From Alphaproteobacteria bacterium (GTDB lineage: Bacteria > Pseudomonadota > Alphaproteobacteria > SHVZ01): 64,000 nt of DNA. Below are positions 7,332 to 60,980 of this stretch, in pieces. Where the stretch lies: positions 368 through 64,367 of the forward strand of contig JBGALV010000012.1 of NCBI GenBank assembly GCA_044223515.1, written 5' to 3'. A program made the translations under genes and the position numbers. The notes below the pieces were generated by a model. It ran no database searches. It was not told the DNA's origin and saw nothing but the letters and a program-made list of their open reading frames with translations. Each line of letters starts with the position of its first letter. Position 1 is the stretch's first letter.

Positions 7332-7595
7332 TCAGCCCCCGGTGGACACCGGGGTCGCTGTCGTCGTCTGCGACTGCACGTCAACGCCGGGTAGGACGCG
7401 GCGGATGGCGTCGGGAAGGTTGGTAACCGCGGGCGGGGCCGTCAGCTCCGGCGGCGGCGGCATGTCGCCGGCCTTGGGGGCCAGCAGGAACCCGACCGCG
7501 ACCGGACTCGCCAGGATCGCCACCAGAAGGACGCGAAGGGCCAGGCGGCCGAAGCGGCCGCCGATATCGTCGGATCGTTGCGCCAAGTCCGTCAT
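7332..7595 (-). CDS. Hypothetical small membrane protein
   Basis: Short ORF with one hydrophobic helix (LALRVLLVAILASPVAVGFLL), convergent with the previous gene. Weak support. Confidence 0.25.
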   Translation of the reverse strand: MTDLAQRSDDIGGRFGRLALRVLLVAILASPVAVGFLLAPKAGDMPPPPELTAPPAVTNLPDAIRRVLPGVDVQSQTTTATPVSTGG

Positions 7596-8020
7596 TCTCG
7601 GCCTTGCCCTCCCCATTGGGCGCCGGTCCCGGAATGTGTCTCGCTCCCGCCGTTCTTCATACTCGGGCCGCGCTTCCGGTCAAGATGCTCGCCGACGCTT
7701 TTCGCTTAGCTCAAAAGCATCAATATTTCTATGAGGTTATAGCCCCATTGTCATCTATTGCGTGAGAATAAGGAAAAATAGTGAATAAACACAAATGGTT
7801 AATAAGCACAACTAGGGCGATGCATTCACTGCTGCAGGCTGACGGCGCAGGATTCCGATTCGCTGCAACCGCGAAGATCCGCGACCCGGCGCGGCGATTT
7901 TCCGAAACAGCGGAGCGCGGCGTGCCGTTCCGCTGCGCCGGCGAAGGTCTGGCGCAGTGCAGCATCGGCTTGTAGGGTGCCCGGCGCCTCTCGCCTGGGG
8001 CCCATTCACCCGGACAGATC

Positions 8021-16316: not shown

Positions 16317-16410
16317 GTCGGTTCCCTCAAGCTTCGAGGCGGGCTCGATTGCGCCGCCGACACGGTGACGCGCGAGGGCGGGCGGTTTCGACAGCGGTCG
16401 AAAAATTCTT

Positions 16411-16475
16411 ACCCCCTCCCCTGGCGCGAAGCGACGGATCGTACCCCCTCCCTCGTGCGAAGCTCGGGGGAGGGT
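16411..16475. repeat. REP-like palindromic element (CCCCCTCCC..GGGGGAGGG)
   Basis: Intergenic between YciI and Lrp. Member of the window-wide family. Confidence 0.7.
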
Positions 16476-18054: not shown

Positions 18055-18065
18055 ACAGCCGACAC

Positions 18066-18182
18066 GGCGCCCCCCACCCTAACCCTCCCCCACAGAGGGG
18101 GGAGGGGATACGAGGTGCGGGCGTCGGGCGTCGTGCTCCTTCCCCCCGCGGAGCGTGGGGGAAGGTTGGGATGGGGGGTCTT
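18066..18182. repeat. Composite REP-like element (two inverted units)
   Basis: CGCCCCCCACCCTAACCCTCCCCCACAGAGGGGGGAGGGG followed by CCTTCCCCCCGCGGAGCGTGGGGGAAGGTTGGGATGGGGGG. Confidence 0.75.
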
Positions 18183-20861: not shown

Positions 20862-21042
20862 GGTCGCTACGCTAGCGCTCTCGGTGCGCAAGCGCGCACC
20901 TGCCGCGTTAGCTAGGCGCCCACGCTCGGGGCCCCCACCCTGCCCTCCCCCGCTGACGCGGGGGAGGGTTTTCTTTTTTGGGTTCGAGAGCGCGGAACGC
21001 GAAAGCTTTTCGGTCGTCCGGAAAGCGGCAGCGTTACGCCAT
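20862..21042. repeat. Composite intergenic repeat block (module M3 + REP core R1 + module M2)
   Basis: M3 GTCGCTACGCTAGCG..GTGCGCAAGCGCGCAC..TTAGCTAGGCGCC; R1 GGCCCCCACCCTGCCCTCCCCCGCTGACGCGGGGGAGGG; M2 GAGCGCGGAACGCG..GCTTTTCGGTCGTCCGGAAAGCGG. Each recurs elsewhere in the window. Confidence 0.75.
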
Positions 21043-22739: not shown

Positions 22740-22815
22740 CGAAAACCGCGAGCGCGGAACGCGGCAGCTTTTCGGTCGTCCGAAAAGCGGGAGCGTTCTG
22801 CATCAAGCGAGCGTC
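22740..22815. repeat. Repeat module M2
   Basis: GAGCGCGGAACGCGGCAGCTTTTCGGTCGTCCGAAAAGCGGGAGCGTT. Contains a GCTTTTCGG/CCGAAAAGC hairpin. Confidence 0.7.
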
Positions 22816-23472: not shown

Positions 23473-23600
23473 TTCCCTCCCCCCACGCGCAGCGTGTGGG
23501 GGAGGGGACACGAGATGCGCGTCGTGAAGATCGCGAGCGCGGAACGCGGCGGCTTTTCGGTCGTCCGAAAAGCGGGAGCGTTCCGCCGTCAGCTCGCGTC
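23473..23600. repeat. REP core R1 + module M2
   Basis: TTCCCTCCCCCCACGCGCAGCGTGTGGGGGAGGGG followed by GAGCGCGGAACGCGGCGGCTTTTCGGTCGTCCGAAAAGCGGGAGCGTT. Confidence 0.75.
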
Positions 23601-30634: not shown

Positions 30635-31327
30635 CTACAGCAGCGTCATCACCGCCGCGTAGTGGGTCGCCGCGCCGACAAGCACGAACACGTGCCACAC
30701 CGCGGTCGAGAACTTGAGCCTCTCCCACAGGTGGAACACCACGCCGGTCGTGTACACGACGCCGCCGGCCGCGATCAGCATCAGCGTCTCCTCGGGCACC
30801 ACCTTCGACAGCGGATCCACGGCGACGACGAAGAGCCAGCTGATCGCGAGGTAGAGCGGGATCCACAGGCGCTCTGGCCACGACCAGTTGCAGAGCTTGG
30901 CGACGATGCCGAGCGACGCCAGCGACCACACCAGCGCGGTCAGCCCCCAGCTCCAGTATCCGGTGAGTCCCAGCGCCGTGAACGGCGTGTAGGTGCCGGC
31001 GATCATCGCGAAGATCGCGGCCTGGTCGATGCGGCGGAGCAGCGGCCGGTGCCGGCAGCGCGGACGCATGTTGTAGACGGCGGAGCAGGTCAGCATCACG
31101 ACCGCGCAGGCGACGTAGATCGCGATCGGCCAGAAAGCGTTCAGCTCTCCTCGCGATGACGCGTCGAGAAGGAGAAGCGCGGCCGCGATCGGCGCAAGTA
31201 CCAGGCCAAGCACATGAACAGCAGCATCGGTGAGTAGCTCGGCTCGTGTCGGTTCTCGGGAACAGAACTGAATGGTGCTCGTGGTCACGGTTAGGCGGTC
31301 CCGGTGCAGGTACTGATGGACCAACAC
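30635..31327 (-). CDS. Hemolysin-III / PAQR-family membrane protein
   Basis: Seven TM segments with a conserved His-rich pattern (HVLGLVLAP..HVFVLVGAATHY). Confidence 0.8.
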   Translation of the reverse strand: MLVHQYLHRDRLTVTTSTIQFCSREPTRAELLTDAAVHVLGLVLAPIAAALLLLDASSRGELNAFWPIAIYVACAVVMLTCSAVYNMRPRCRHRPLLRRIDQAAIFAMIAGTYTPFTALGLTGYWSWGLTALVWSLASLGIVAKLCNWSWPERLWIPLYLAISWLFVVAVDPLSKVVPEETLMLIAAGGVVYTTGVVFHLWERLKFSTAVWHVFVLVGAATHYAAVMTLL

Positions 31328-31420
31328 CAGAGGCGATGGCTGACGTTCCTGAGTTCGCAGTGACCGATGCGTGCGGTGTGACCGATGCGTGTCTTCGTTG
31401 TCGCGGAAGGAACTTGCGCT

Positions 31421-31878
31421 CGTATCCCCTCCCTCGCGTCGTACGCGGGGGAGGGCTAGGGTGGGGGCTCTAAATGGCGAGAATTCCGGAACGCATCACC
31501 CGTCGCGCCCGCGCGCTCCGCTCGGACATGACCGAGGCCGAGACTCGCCTCTGGCATCGCTTGCGGAATCGTCAGTTTGATGGCTGGCGCTTCCGTCGCC
31601 AGCATCCGATCGACCCTTATGTGGCGGACTTCGCTTGTCCCGACGCGATGCTCGTGGTCGAAGTCGACGGTGGGCAGCATGCGGACTCCGCGCGCGACGC
31701 GGAGCGCGATGCGAGTCTCGTGACGCGCGGATGGAAAGTGCTGAGATTCTGGAACAACGACGTGCTCGCGAATATCGACGGCGTGCTCGCGACGATCGCG
31801 GCGACGCTGGCGCCGTTACGGAAGGCCGAAGAGCCCCCACCCTGACCCTCCCCCGCGTACGACGCGAGGGAGGGAACT
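31421..31878. mobile_element. MITE-like cassette: DUF559 gene bounded by ~45-bp inverted REP-like terminal repeats
   Basis: Left repeat CCCCTCCCTCGCGTCGTACGCGGGGGAGGGCTAGGGTGGGGGCTC. Right repeat is its near-perfect reverse complement GAGCCCCCACCCTGACCCTCCCCCGCGTACGACGCGAGGGAGGG. The ORF stop codon lies inside the right repeat. Confidence 0.5.
31474..31845 (+). CDS. DUF559 endonuclease-domain protein (Vsr/restriction-endonuclease-like fold)
   Basis: Full DUF559 pattern: TEAETRLWHRLRNRQF.GWRFRRQHPI..YVADFAC....LVVEVDGGQH....D..RD..L...GWKVLRFWNNDV. Confidence 0.85.
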   Translation: MARIPERITRRARALRSDMTEAETRLWHRLRNRQFDGWRFRRQHPIDPYVADFACPDAMLVVEVDGGQHADSARDAERDASLVTRGWKVLRFWNNDVLANIDGVLATIAATLAPLRKAEEPPP

Positions 31879-32014
31879 CGAGGCGCTCGCGCGAGCGCGA
31901 AACGCGGCAGCTTTTCGGCGCCGCGAGGCGGGCGCACCGGAAAGCGGGAGCGTTTCGCCGCAAGGCGAGCATCGTGAGTTCCTTCGCGAAGCGAAGTCCG
32001 TATAGTCTCATGCG

Positions 32015-32956
32015 ATGACACGCAGCCTCACCCTCGCCGCCCTCCAGATGGGCCCCACGCAGCGCGCGGACTCCCGCGCGCGCACCCTCGACCGCATGAT
32101 CGCCTTGCTCGAACGCGCGGCCTCTTCCGGCGCGCGCTTCGTCGTGTTCCCCGAGCTCGCGTTCACCACGTTCTTCCCGCGTTGGGCGATGGACGACGCG
32201 GAGCTTCTGGGCTTCTTCGAGCGCGAGATTCCTTCCCCGCAGACCGAGGCGCTGTTCGCCCGGGCGCGCGAGCTCGGGATCGGATTCCATGTCGGCTACG
32301 GCGAGCTGACGCCGGCGGGCAAGCGCTTCAACGCCGCGGTCATCGTCGGTCGCGACGGCCGCATCCTCGCGAAGTACCGCAAGGTGCATCTGCCGGGCAC
32401 GACCGAGCCCAAGCCGGGCCTCGCCTACCAGCAGCTGGAGAAGCGCTACTTCGAGTATGGCGATCTCGGCTTCTCGACCTTCCGCGCCCCGTCCGATCTC
32501 GGCGATGCGGTCATGGGCATGCTGATCTGCAACGACCGCCGCTGGCCCGAGGCGTGGCGCGTGCTGGGACTCAAGGGCGTCGAGCTCGTGTGCTGCGGCT
32601 ACAACTCCGCCGCCTACGATCCTTTCGGGCGGAAGAACGAGGACCAGGCGCTCCGCACCTTCCACTCGACGCTGGTGGCGCAGGCGAACGCCTACATGAA
32701 CTCGACCTTCGCGGTCTGCGTCGCCAAGGCCGGCGTCGAGGACGGCGCAGGGCTGATCGGCGGCTCGGTGATCGTCGATCCCAACGGCCGCGTCGTCGCG
32801 GACGCGAAGACGCTCGAAGACGAGGCGATCGTCGCCGAGATCGATCTCGATCTCTGCCGCCACGGCAAAGAGAAGATGTTCGACTTCGCCGCGCATCGTC
32901 GCATCGGCGCCTACGATCTCATCACCACGCAGACCGGCGTGACGTCGCCGGATTGA
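32015..32956 (+). CDS. Carbon-nitrogen hydrolase family protein (nitrilase/N-carbamoyl-amino-acid amidohydrolase-like)
   Basis: Catalytic E-K-C context (VVFPEL.., ..RKVHLP.., LICNDRRWPE). Confidence 0.9.
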   Translation: MTRSLTLAALQMGPTQRADSRARTLDRMIALLERAASSGARFVVFPELAFTTFFPRWAMDDAELLGFFEREIPSPQTEALFARARELGIGFHVGYGELTPAGKRFNAAVIVGRDGRILAKYRKVHLPGTTEPKPGLAYQQLEKRYFEYGDLGFSTFRAPSDLGDAVMGMLICNDRRWPEAWRVLGLKGVELVCCGYNSAAYDPFGRKNEDQALRTFHSTLVAQANAYMNSTFAVCVAKAGVEDGAGLIGGSVIVDPNGRVVADAKTLEDEAIVAEIDLDLCRHGKEKMFDFAAHRRIGAYDLITTQTGVTSPD

Positions 32957-34438: not shown

Positions 34439-34567
34439 CGCTTAACAGTTCGTTCGGCGAAATCGATACGCTGCCCACCTTGCCCTCCCTCGCGCACCGC
34501 GCGGGGGAGGGCTTTGTTTTGTGGACGGTCATACGAGTCCTCTTCGGCTCTGCTTCGCCGGGGAGGG

Positions 34568-34930
34568 TCAGGTGGGGCCGAGCGTGGTCGCGATCACGCT
34601 CACGACTCCATCCGTGTTCGACAAAACGTCGCTGTTCCAAAACCGCAACACACGCCACCCCGCTTCCTGCATGCTTCGATCGCGCCGCGCATCAGTTCGA
34701 GACCCGCGTGCTGTCCCCCATCCACCTCGACGACGAGCTTGGCTTCGATACAGGCGAAGTCGACAACGTATTCGTCGATCGGATGCTGACGCCGGAATCT
34801 CCATCCGCCGATCTGCTTTCGATTGAGCCGATTCCACAGCCGACGTTCCGAGTCCGTCGACTCCATCCGCAGTCGCCGCGCCCGACGTGTCGTGGTCAGA
34901 GGTGTCTTCGCCATCGGGCCAAGCCCCCAC
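34568..34930 (-). pseudogene. DUF559 endonuclease-domain gene, frameshifted second copy, flanked by REP-like units (34473-34511 and 34921-34966)
   Basis: N-terminal two thirds in frame 34600..34914 (TDSERRLWNRLNRKQIGGWRFRRQHPIDEYVVDFAC..VVEVDGGQHAG). C-terminal GWRVLRFWNSDVL in frame 34568..34930. Confidence 0.7.
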
Positions 34931-34973
34931 CCTGCCCTCCCCCGCGTACGACGCGAGGGAGGGTTCTGAACAG

Positions 34974-46680: not shown

Positions 46681-46830
46681 GTACTCCCTCCCTCGGCGAA
46701 GCCGGGGGAGGGACGGGGTGGGGGCATGGCCGTGAAGGTGCAATGTACTCGATAGAGCTCGCCTGCCTCGAACAGCGGAGTAGCGCCCCCACCCTGCCCT
46801 CCCCCGCGTAAGACGCGAGGGAGGGTTCCG
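46681..46830. repeat. Inverted pair of REP-like units with ~50-bp spacer (cargo-less MITE-like element)
   Basis: Same terminal repeats as the DUF559 cassette: ..CGGGGGAGGGACGGGGTGGGGGC / GCCCCCACCCTGCCCTCCCCCGCG... Confidence 0.7.
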
Positions 46831-50799: not shown

Positions 50800-50998
50800 C
50801 GTACTTCCTCCCCCCGATCCTTTCGGCCCCCTCTCCCGCGAAGCGGGGGAGGGTTGGGGCGGGGGCCGAGCGTAAGCGAGGTCGGATCGGAATCGCCACT
50901 GCGCTGCTCCTCGCTGTGCTCGGCCCCCACCCTGCCCTCCCCCGCGGGGGACGCGGGAGAGGGTTCCAAAGGTGCGCGCGCGGGGGGGAGGGAATCAG
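50800..50998. repeat. Inverted pair of REP-like units (cargo-less) plus extra G-rich unit
   Basis: ..CGAAGCGGGGGAGGGTTGGGGCGGGGGCC .. GGCCCCCACCCTGCCCTCCCCCGCGGGGGACGCGGGAGAGGG. Confidence 0.7.
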
Positions 50999-60867: not shown

Positions 60868-60980
60868 CGCTTCGCTCGCCCCCTCCCTAACCCTCCCCCG
60901 CTTTGCGGGAGAGGGGACTCGACCTCGTGCCCCCTCTCCCGGCGCGTAGCGACGGGGGAGGGACGGGGTGGGGGCGAGCG
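60868..60980. repeat. Head-to-head pair of REP-like units
   Basis: CGCCCCCTCCCTAACCCTCCCCCGCTTTGCGGGAGAGGGG .. CCCCCTCTCCCGGCGCGTAGCGACGGGGGAGGGACGGGGTGGGGGCG. Confidence 0.7.

Follow-up and report, generated by a model that had tools for sequence, protein, structure and literature searches.

Dispersed palindromic repeats of the REP/REPIN type have genes of their own, the REP-associated tyrosine transposases (RAYTs; PMC3116915, PMC3337134, PMC3479197). Another repeat family, BoxC or the intrastrand triplex motif (TM), which is called TMECO in Escherichia coli and was earlier named PIT motifs, is built from a C-rich and a G-rich arm separated by a loop, followed by a 3-nt linker and another G-rich block, and 3610 TMECO copies were counted across 262 proteobacterial genomes (Holder, 2015; PMC4666352). 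The same study reported that TMECO single strands formed a triplex in vitro, which was undetected in vivo, that earlier work had found no promoter or terminator activity in PIT/TMECO motifs, that TM-carrying loci vary more between strains and are tied to local indels and instability, and that palindromic TM pairs tend to be trimmed with one hairpin left over (PMC4666352). It reported no associated gene, found no mobility functions, and did not mention DUF559 (PMC4666352). In the present study, we analyzed a 64,000-nt stretch of an alphaproteobacterial genome (GTDB lineage SHVZ01; GCA_044223515.1, contig JBGALV010000012.1, positions 368 to 64,367; hereafter the window, in whose numbering all coordinates are given unless another genome is named), in which a gene for a DUF559 protein, predicted to be a Vsr-like nuclease, is enclosed by two inverted repeat units at 31419-31882. 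This cassette (cassette 1) may be described as a protein-coding member of the BoxC/TM family, namely, a Vsr-fold DUF559 gene between inverted TM units, and a RAYT/REPIN-like partnership between the resident nuclease and the TM repeats is the most likely of the explanations considered, with about an even chance of being correct. The DUF559 family is very large, and we know of no function for any of its stand-alone proteins.

Results

Structure of the cassette

An inverted-repeat search of the window returned the two arms of the cassette, each of 53 nt, with 91% complementarity and a distance of 358 nt between them. The left unit begins with an outer motif, CTCGTAT (31419-31425), followed by a hairpin (31427-31455) with a 13-bp stem including one G-T pair and a loop at 31440-31442; CTA links the hairpin to a G-rich mirror tail, GGGTGGGGGC (31459-31468), and the ATG of the DUF559 open reading frame (ORF) lies 5 nt past the end of this tail. 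The right unit is read in the opposite direction, with the C-rich tail GCCCCCACCC (31833-31842), the linker TGA (31843-31845), and the hairpin (31846-31874), and its linker is the stop codon of the ORF. The 13-bp hairpins of the two arms, folded as single-stranded DNA, reach -15.2 kcal/mol (z-score, -3.7) and -13.8 kcal/mol (z-score, -4.2), and none of 200 shuffled sequences folded as well. A preliminary description of this DNA had already placed an intact DUF559 ORF between inverted units and had noted that the right repeat supplies its stop codon, both of which were borne out. Scans inside the cassette detected no promoter-like or terminator-like site, and a permissive Rfam scan of 31250-32100 gave chance-level matches only.

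The DUF559 protein

The product of the ORF matched Pfam DUF559 (PF04480) over residues 7-112 with 133.5 bits against a cutoff of 20.6 (E = 3.4e-39). An alignment of 22 homologs shows no variation at D52, E63, Q68, and H69 and conservation of 90% or more at D65; the window protein has all five, and we take these D...ExD..QH residues to be catalytic from what is known about Vsr. The family profile matched the structure 3HRL (NGO0050 of Neisseria gonorrhoeae) with an E-value of 9.4e-40, and the next structures were those of I-Bth0305I (3R3P, E = 0.006) and Vsr (1CW0, E = 0.05). The protein scored 22 bits with the Vsr model (TIGR00632; cutoff 97.85) and 104.2 bits with the YcjD equivalog model (NF007294; cutoff 218), and Y1_Tnp was not among the Pfam matches of the gene. 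According to these profile scores, it is a member of DUF559 and an orthologue of neither Vsr nor YcjD, and its nearest characterized relatives are the nicking repair enzyme Vsr and the homing endonuclease I-Bth0305I. The exact protein had no entry in sequence records. DUF559-like domains were also found in the anti-phage proteins Hhe, ProA, and DpdF, where the likeness is at the domain level only.

The DUF559 ORF of some genomes continues across the right TM unit into the following gene, and in one of them (L010, 4995-6599) the read-through gives an in-frame fusion to a long downstream ORF. Read-through of the right TM unit is probably the reason for the odd names of DUF559 proteins in source records, such as 'primosomal protein N'', '2-isopropylmalate synthase', and 'BirA'.

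Assignment of the repeats to the BoxC/TM family

The preliminary description regarded the repeats as REP-like palindromes with an asymmetric arm; their relationship to BoxC/TM was overlooked. The units of the window do not follow the strict TMECO consensus, CCCTCNCCC-N3-6-GGGNGAGGG-N3-GGGNGAGGG; they read CCCTCCCTCGCG-TCGTA-CGCGGGGGAGGG-CTA-GGGTGGGGGC and differ from TMECO in the sequence and length of the stem. They have the generic TM architecture, which is a pyrimidine arm, a loop, a purine arm, a short linker, and a mirror tail. Read as a mirror image with T in place of A, the purine arm GGGGGAGGG gives the tail GGGTGGGGG, and this relation of tail to purine arm holds in all asymmetric subtypes examined; in a rough count, a mirror model fitted 163 times with at most one mismatch versus 86 times for a direct-repeat model. 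As described for TM, the units are dispersed, intergenic, and also arranged as doublets (Table 1). The window contains nine hairpin motifs (0.76 expected) and eight tail motifs (0.54 expected), counts that no shuffle reached, and it has at least 15 TM units. Units of the window type were also present on three unrelated metagenome contigs. Judged by this shared layout, the repeats are a variant of the published BoxC/TM family.

Association of DUF559 genes with TM units across genomes

One genome per GTDB species was scanned, which yielded 80 DUF559 loci (48-66% amino-acid identity) from Alpha-, Beta-, and Gammaproteobacteria, Myxococcota, Chloroflexota, and other groups. The upstream flank of each locus was aligned locally with the reverse-complemented downstream flank, and the arms were called strong when the score was at least 6 points over the best of 20 shuffles. 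Strong inverted arms flanked the gene in 60 of the 80 loci, and these arms share one common plan in which the tails point at the gene. With an independent detector, the density of TM units was 6.0 per kb in the immediate flanks and 0.116 per kb in the remaining 618 kb, an approximately 50-fold enrichment; an adjacent TM unit was found at 74 loci and the full left-plus-right arrangement at 50. The claim of the preliminary description that this packaging is not coincidental is upheld by its recurrence in the window and across phyla.

The fit of gene to arms seen in the window also extends to these loci. The distance from the last core codon to the right tail has a median of 13 nt, 76% of the ORFs end in or beyond the right unit, and the family alignment showed that many homologs end in P-x-P-x-P-P-P...G-E-G, which is a translated TM unit. 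A search of 2.9 million viral contigs gave 33 DUF559 relatives, mostly on small contigs or at contig edges; 25 of 27 DUF559 relatives on viral contigs were flanked, new repeat subtypes included. The DUF559 genes of Deinococcus, Synechocystis, Picosynechococcus, and Sinorhizobium are likewise flanked by TM units. The arrangement recurs from Proteobacteria to Chloroflexota, Deinococcota, and Cyanobacteria. In Deinococcus proteolyticus (pDEIPR03, L100) and on a plasmid of Synechocystis sp. B12 (L101), the tails point outward, the opposite of the proteobacterial layout, and the inverted repeat of L100 runs 18 nt beyond the unit.

Regarding the specificity of the association, 69 inward TM pairs spaced 200-1600 nt apart enclose a DUF559 gene and four distinct pairs do not; no other recurrent gene was found inside inward pairs of this spacing, which leaves DUF559 as the sole recurrent cargo. 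Gene-free TM pairs in other genomes are mostly tails-inward with spacers of 23-35 nt. The identity of the protein core tracks the TM subtype across classes (permutation p < 0.0005), and this effect is stronger than that of taxonomic class (p = 0.026). Searches of open-access papers and bioRxiv found no report of a link between DUF559 and BoxC/TM; an earlier one in a subscription journal is possible.

Filled and empty sites in close relatives

The neighboring genes are syntenic with the window in related alphaproteobacterial metagenome-assembled genomes (MAGs), which allowed two sites to be compared. Site A lies between the HlyIII and CN-hydrolase genes, and its alleles were compared by hand between the window and the closer relatives L142 and L143, which are approximately 92% identical to it. 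The window is filled with the cassette, L142 and L143 have one solo tail-less hairpin exactly at this site, and their flanks match the window base for base. The filled allele minus the empty allele is a 419-nt block with the order tail-gene-tail-inverted hairpin, and no target-site duplication was found at site A between the window and L142/L143 beyond the palindromic hairpin itself. In L084, the CN-hydrolase gene of which is 83% identical to that of the window, neither the hairpin nor the gene is present. The event is equally well explained by insertion at a hairpin and by deletion between two near-identical hairpins; the reported trimming of palindromic TM pairs to one hairpin (PMC4666352) fits the deletion route. 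Filled and empty alleles exist, as for homing elements, but the palindrome is intact on both sides of the gene.

Site B, between a gene for a 203-aa protein and a histidine kinase gene, is filled in the window with a frameshifted copy and in L142 and L082 with orthologues that have an intact ORF, and it is empty in L143-L148 and L084, where a plain terminator is all that is present. The gene beside site B is 98.4% identical between L142 and L143, yet the site is filled in the former and empty in the latter; therefore, the whole cassette comes or goes as one block over short evolutionary times. A presence/absence polymorphism among relatives, as anticipated in the preliminary description, is accordingly observed for the whole cassette at both sites. 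The intact 128-aa DUF559 ORFs at site B of L082 (7425-7815, minus strand) and L142 (approximately 7540-7930, minus strand) are uncalled in the source records, and protein databases may therefore under-count the family. In L142 (7460-8030), the site B cassette is bracketed by two more units in the array R [L gene R] L, and only a decayed version of the outer left unit is kept in the window.

Inheritance, selection, and copy number

Few copies, vertical inheritance, and purifying selection characterize the DUF559 cassette gene. P0013, seen on 20 contigs, and P0033, seen on 9, are each confined to a single genomic context with the same neighbors, and recent multi-locus transposition was rejected on this basis. 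Azospirillum replicons of 1.7-2 Mb have one copy each, and the median for E. coli genomes with ycjD is also one. Cassettes of different species, even those of Dyella and Rhodanobacter, are syntenic, and the ratio of nonsynonymous to synonymous substitution rates (dN/dS) over 108 core codons was 0.06-0.21. The arms (82-100%) were better conserved than the coding sequence (61-85%) in six of nine ortholog pairs, and the same was found for the site B ortholog. The coding DNA of the two window paralogs is just 62% identical and their right units are approximately 98% identical (34923-34963 of cassette 2 compared with the right unit of cassette 1).

In 73 of 77 loci, the DUF559 gene has a lower GC content than its host locus, with a mean difference of 5.5 points, and lower GC is also found in copies resident since before species splits. 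Low GC at third codon positions (GC3) was considered as a sign of recent arrival and dropped, since long-resident copies have still lower GC3.

ycjD and TMECO in Escherichia coli

The stop codon of ycjD in E. coli K-12 lies inside a degenerate BoxC hairpin, and TMECO #9 is located approximately 170 nt downstream of the gene. A duplicated fragment of the ycjD 3' end is present between the ycjD stop codon and TMECO #9 (L081, NC_000913.3, 1351040-1351407), and it looks like the remnant of a rearrangement at the repeat. ycjD was found in 3378 of 5426 complete E. coli genomes and is present in E. coli 042. The phylogroup labels used here for the strains in the published table of TMECO counts (Table S7) are ours. 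According to that table, K-12, B, B1-type, and related strains have 18-30 TMECO, B2 strains 0-2, O157:H7 and O55:H7 10-11, and IAI39, CE10, and SMS-3-5 6-7 (PMC4666352). A 2026 study reported the gene from phylogroups A, B1, and C as well as from ST69 and ST182, with the eefRABCD operon at that site elsewhere (PMC12817139). A joint query of ycjD plus a TMECO unit was run on 60 evenly spaced E. coli genomes: those with ycjD (n = 37) had 10-25 matching places (median 16, the gene's own place counted), and those without it (n = 22 chromosomes) had 1-13 (median 3.5). The association between ycjD and TMECO runs in the predicted direction.

Further repeat units of the window

The coordinates of the cassettes and the remaining TM units are summarized in Table 1. 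The inventory in the preliminary description included cassette 1 and the two gene-free pairs, and it overlooked cassette 2 together with the solo, hairpin-only, and tails-outward units. The gene-free pairs, which had been called identical to the cassette repeats, are of the same family and have their tails inward, but they are not identical: their loops and linkers differ from those of the cassette arms, and only the right unit at 46785-46825 is near-identical. A possible likeness of their spacers to the cassette had been put forward for checking; a comparison with the cassette interiors revealed no similarity.

Table 1. Positions of the DUF559 cassettes and TM units in the 64-kb window (a point in the strand column marks features listed with no strand).
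Feature	Position	Strand	Remarks
Solo TM unit	16410..16475	-	extra spacer between tail and hairpin
TM pair, tails outward	18064..18180	.	second unit (18137-18180) of the CCTTCCCCC subtype
Solo TM unit	20929..20969	-	
Hairpin-only unit	23473..23510	.	no tail
Left TM unit of cassette 1	31419..31471	+	repeat search, folding
Intact DUF559 ORF, 123 aa, putative Vsr-like PD-(D/E)XK nuclease	31474..31845	+	Pfam match, conserved residues
Right TM unit of cassette 1	31830..31882	-	reverse complement of the left unit
Cassette 2 (DUF559 and TM units)	34483..34963	-	second packaged copy, frameshifted
Units on the 3' side of cassette 2	34483..34580	.	outer hairpin with degenerate C-rich tail, 34470-34511; decayed unit, 34546-34580
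DUF559 copy 2, frameshifted	34568..34930	-	residues 18-70, 34863-34705; residues 75-114, 34693-34574, in another frame
TM unit on the 5' side of cassette 2	34923..34963	-	identical to the unit in the orthologous L082 cassette
Gene-free TM doublet, tails inward	46681..46830	.	59-nt spacer; same family as the cassette arms
Gene-free TM doublet, tails inward	50800..50967	.	spacer of ~55 nt; same family as the cassette arms
TM pair, tails outward	60878..60975	.	

The second unit of the first tails-outward pair (CCTTCCCCC / GGGGGAAGG, tail GGGATGGGG) sits among units of the dominant CCCTCCC subtype; elsewhere, the CCTTCCCCC subtype flanks the DUF559 genes of Pseudoxanthomonas, Noviherbaspirillum, Dongia, and a SAR202 Chloroflexota MAG. 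The other tails-outward pair adjoins an FMN riboswitch (RF00050, 60651-60805, minus strand, 112.7 bits), which was the sole match at the gathering score when the whole window was scanned with Rfam. A second dispersed element of approximately 90-110 nt with nested palindromes (GCGCGGAACGCG..GCTTTTCGGTCGTCCGAAAAGCGG..) was noted at 20990-21028, 22752-22790, 23537-23575, and 31895-31975. It had three matches in the window against 0.00 expected, often adjoins TM units, and had no Rfam match, and a relative of it precedes, as a conserved leader, the CN-hydrolase gene of orthologous loci (L082, L083, and L084).

Discussion

The reading that we favor is that the DUF559 nuclease binds and nicks or cuts its own repeat. 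Its target would be the palindromic hairpin sequence of approximately 29 bp, or a hairpin/triplex on single-stranded DNA. Repair of the break from other copies would spread and homogenize the TM units, and this repair may occasionally move or delete the unit that carries the gene; doublets with no gene, solo units, and hairpins with no tail would then represent non-coding offspring or scars. A partnership of this type is preferred because it explains together the presence of one gene and many repeats, the likeness of the repeats around divergent paralogs, the co-variation of the protein with the repeat subtype, and vertical inheritance under purifying selection. The preliminary description had raised the possibility that the DUF559 protein acts on these palindromes, and this appears to be the best-supported interpretation of the present results. 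The wider proposal that stand-alone DUF559 proteins are the cognate nucleases of BoxC/TM, and that the two may form a second, independent RAYT/REPIN-like system in which a Vsr-fold nuclease recognizes a hairpin-plus-triplex and copying is induced by nicks or breaks, is made more tentatively, and its chances are somewhat below even.

Several points weigh against such a partnership. The evidence for a functional link between DUF559 and TM consists of co-location and co-variation, as read from genome sequences. The 80 loci are the closest relatives of the window protein and may not be representative of the whole Pfam family, approximately one quarter of them do not have a clear inverted pair, and the tails point outward in some lineages (Deinococcus and Synechocystis). 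Since both flanking hairpins are intact, cleavage of the palindrome would hit the enzyme's own locus as well, unless this is protected or the enzyme only nicks. The correlation in E. coli follows phylogroups and, therefore, represents few independent events; furthermore, E. coli of the O157:H7 type without ycjD keep approximately 12 matching places, and the TM units thus outlast the gene. The window covers 64 kb of the genome, and a RAYT or another transposase may be encoded elsewhere.

A selfish cassette of the homing type is a possible, albeit unlikely, alternative. The tail-gene-tail-hairpin block would enter existing TM hairpins or doublets, for which the nuclease would cut the empty palindrome and repair would proceed from a filled copy; TM units would be landing sites and footprints that are not propagated by the nuclease. 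This is consistent with the alleles at site A, which differ by exactly this block between identical flanks and consist of one palindromic hairpin when empty, with the polymorphism of site B between 98%-identical genomes, and with the weak similarity of the family to I-Bth0305I; the low GC of DUF559 relative to the host locus (73 of 77) and the fact that one of the window copies is a pseudogene also point in this direction. However, near-identical gene copies at different loci were not found, the cassettes are syntenic across genera and under purifying selection, and the gene is low-copy while TM units are many. In addition, insertion leaves the supposed target palindrome undisrupted, and deletion between near-identical hairpins accounts for site A equally well.

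It is similarly improbable that the gene and the repeats have no enzymatic link. TM units would then act in cis as structural or regulatory elements, such as mRNA-end stabilizers, insulators, or a means of translation control through the G-rich tail near the start codon, or would be recombination hot spots around a horizontally acquired nuclease gene for repair or defense. With its end 5 nt ahead of the ATG, the left tail could serve as a Shine-Dalgarno sequence, the cassette has no promoter-like or terminator-like site of its own, TM units persist in E. coli lineages without ycjD, and DUF559-like domains occur, at the domain level only, in the anti-phage proteins Hhe, ProA, and DpdF. The reported connection of TM with local instability also suits this explanation (Holder, 2015; PMC4666352), whereas the absence of promoter or terminator activity from PIT/TMECO motifs does not (PMC4666352). 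Moreover, it leaves unexplained why DUF559 is the sole gene to be bracketed, why the protein tracks the TM subtype across classes, and why TM units are enriched approximately 50-fold around it.

The preliminary description interpreted the cassette as a unit similar to a MITE (miniature inverted-repeat transposable element); on this model, DUF559 would be passive cargo, the transposase would be encoded elsewhere, and the empty pairs would be internal-deletion derivatives. We consider a non-autonomous MITE to be highly improbable. The inverted repeats are terminal, the gene-free pairs have the same polarity, and the rest of the genome lies outside the window, all of which is compatible with a MITE. 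On the other hand, site A showed no target-site duplication, no identical copies were found (those of the window are 62% identical), the empty pairs have spacers with no relation to the cassette interiors, and low copy number, synteny, and purifying selection do not suit a MITE; the cargo is always DUF559 across phyla and TM subtypes, which would not be the case for a passive passenger. A chance placement of REP-like elements in the intergenic space around a short gene can be dismissed: TM units are frequent, with at least 15 in 64 kb, but both window copies and 74 of 80 loci elsewhere are flanked, the local enrichment is approximately 50-fold, the orientation is fixed, and the ORF overlaps the repeat.

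If the proposed partnership is correct, it would provide a function for a very large protein family of unknown function and for a repeat family that has been without one since its description. It would also represent a second repeat family that co-evolves with a resident nuclease, with a chemistry unrelated to that of RAYTs, and a natural protein that recognizes a triplex-forming DNA motif. BoxC/TM is abundant in hundreds of bacterial genomes, and the link offers a testable hypothesis for the repeat and for DUF559 alike; E. coli K-12, with ycjD and 23 TMECO sites, may be used as a test bed.

Comparison with known systems

Similar to MITEs and insertion sequences, the cassette has terminal inverted repeats and shorter gene-free versions; it differs from them in that it has no transposase, target-site duplication, or identical copies, and its gene-free versions are not deletion derivatives. 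With Vsr-like EDxHD homing endonucleases, such as I-Bth0305I, it shares a distantly related core (E = 0.006), filled and empty alleles, and a palindromic candidate target, whereas the DUF559 gene lies outside introns and inteins, the target is undisrupted, and inheritance is mostly vertical. Vsr, 3HRL, and YcjD belong to the same fold family and share the conserved acidic/His motif, and ycjD also abuts BoxC units.

The units of the window resemble BoxC/TM in their three-part structure, their intergenic and dispersed distribution, the frequency of inverted doublets, and the local indels that accompany them. They differ in the subtype, CCCTCCC(T/C)CGCG...GGGAGGG plus GGGTGGGGG, and in the longer, 13-bp stem; moreover, BoxC/TM as published has no gene, whereas a DUF559 gene resides inside the doublet in the window. 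The RAYT/REPIN system differs in its enzyme, an HUH/Y1 transposase, in place of which the cassette encodes a putative Vsr-like PD-(D/E)XK nuclease that is not a RAYT by the test that defines this group and that would act on TM, and in its repeat, since TM has a mirror (triplex-type) tail and no GTAG tag. The two systems nevertheless share their essential organization: a nuclease gene that is low-copy and inherited vertically lies between inverted copies of a palindromic repeat with a dispersed distribution, the usual non-coding form of this repeat is the inverted doublet, and the repeat type co-varies with the gene.

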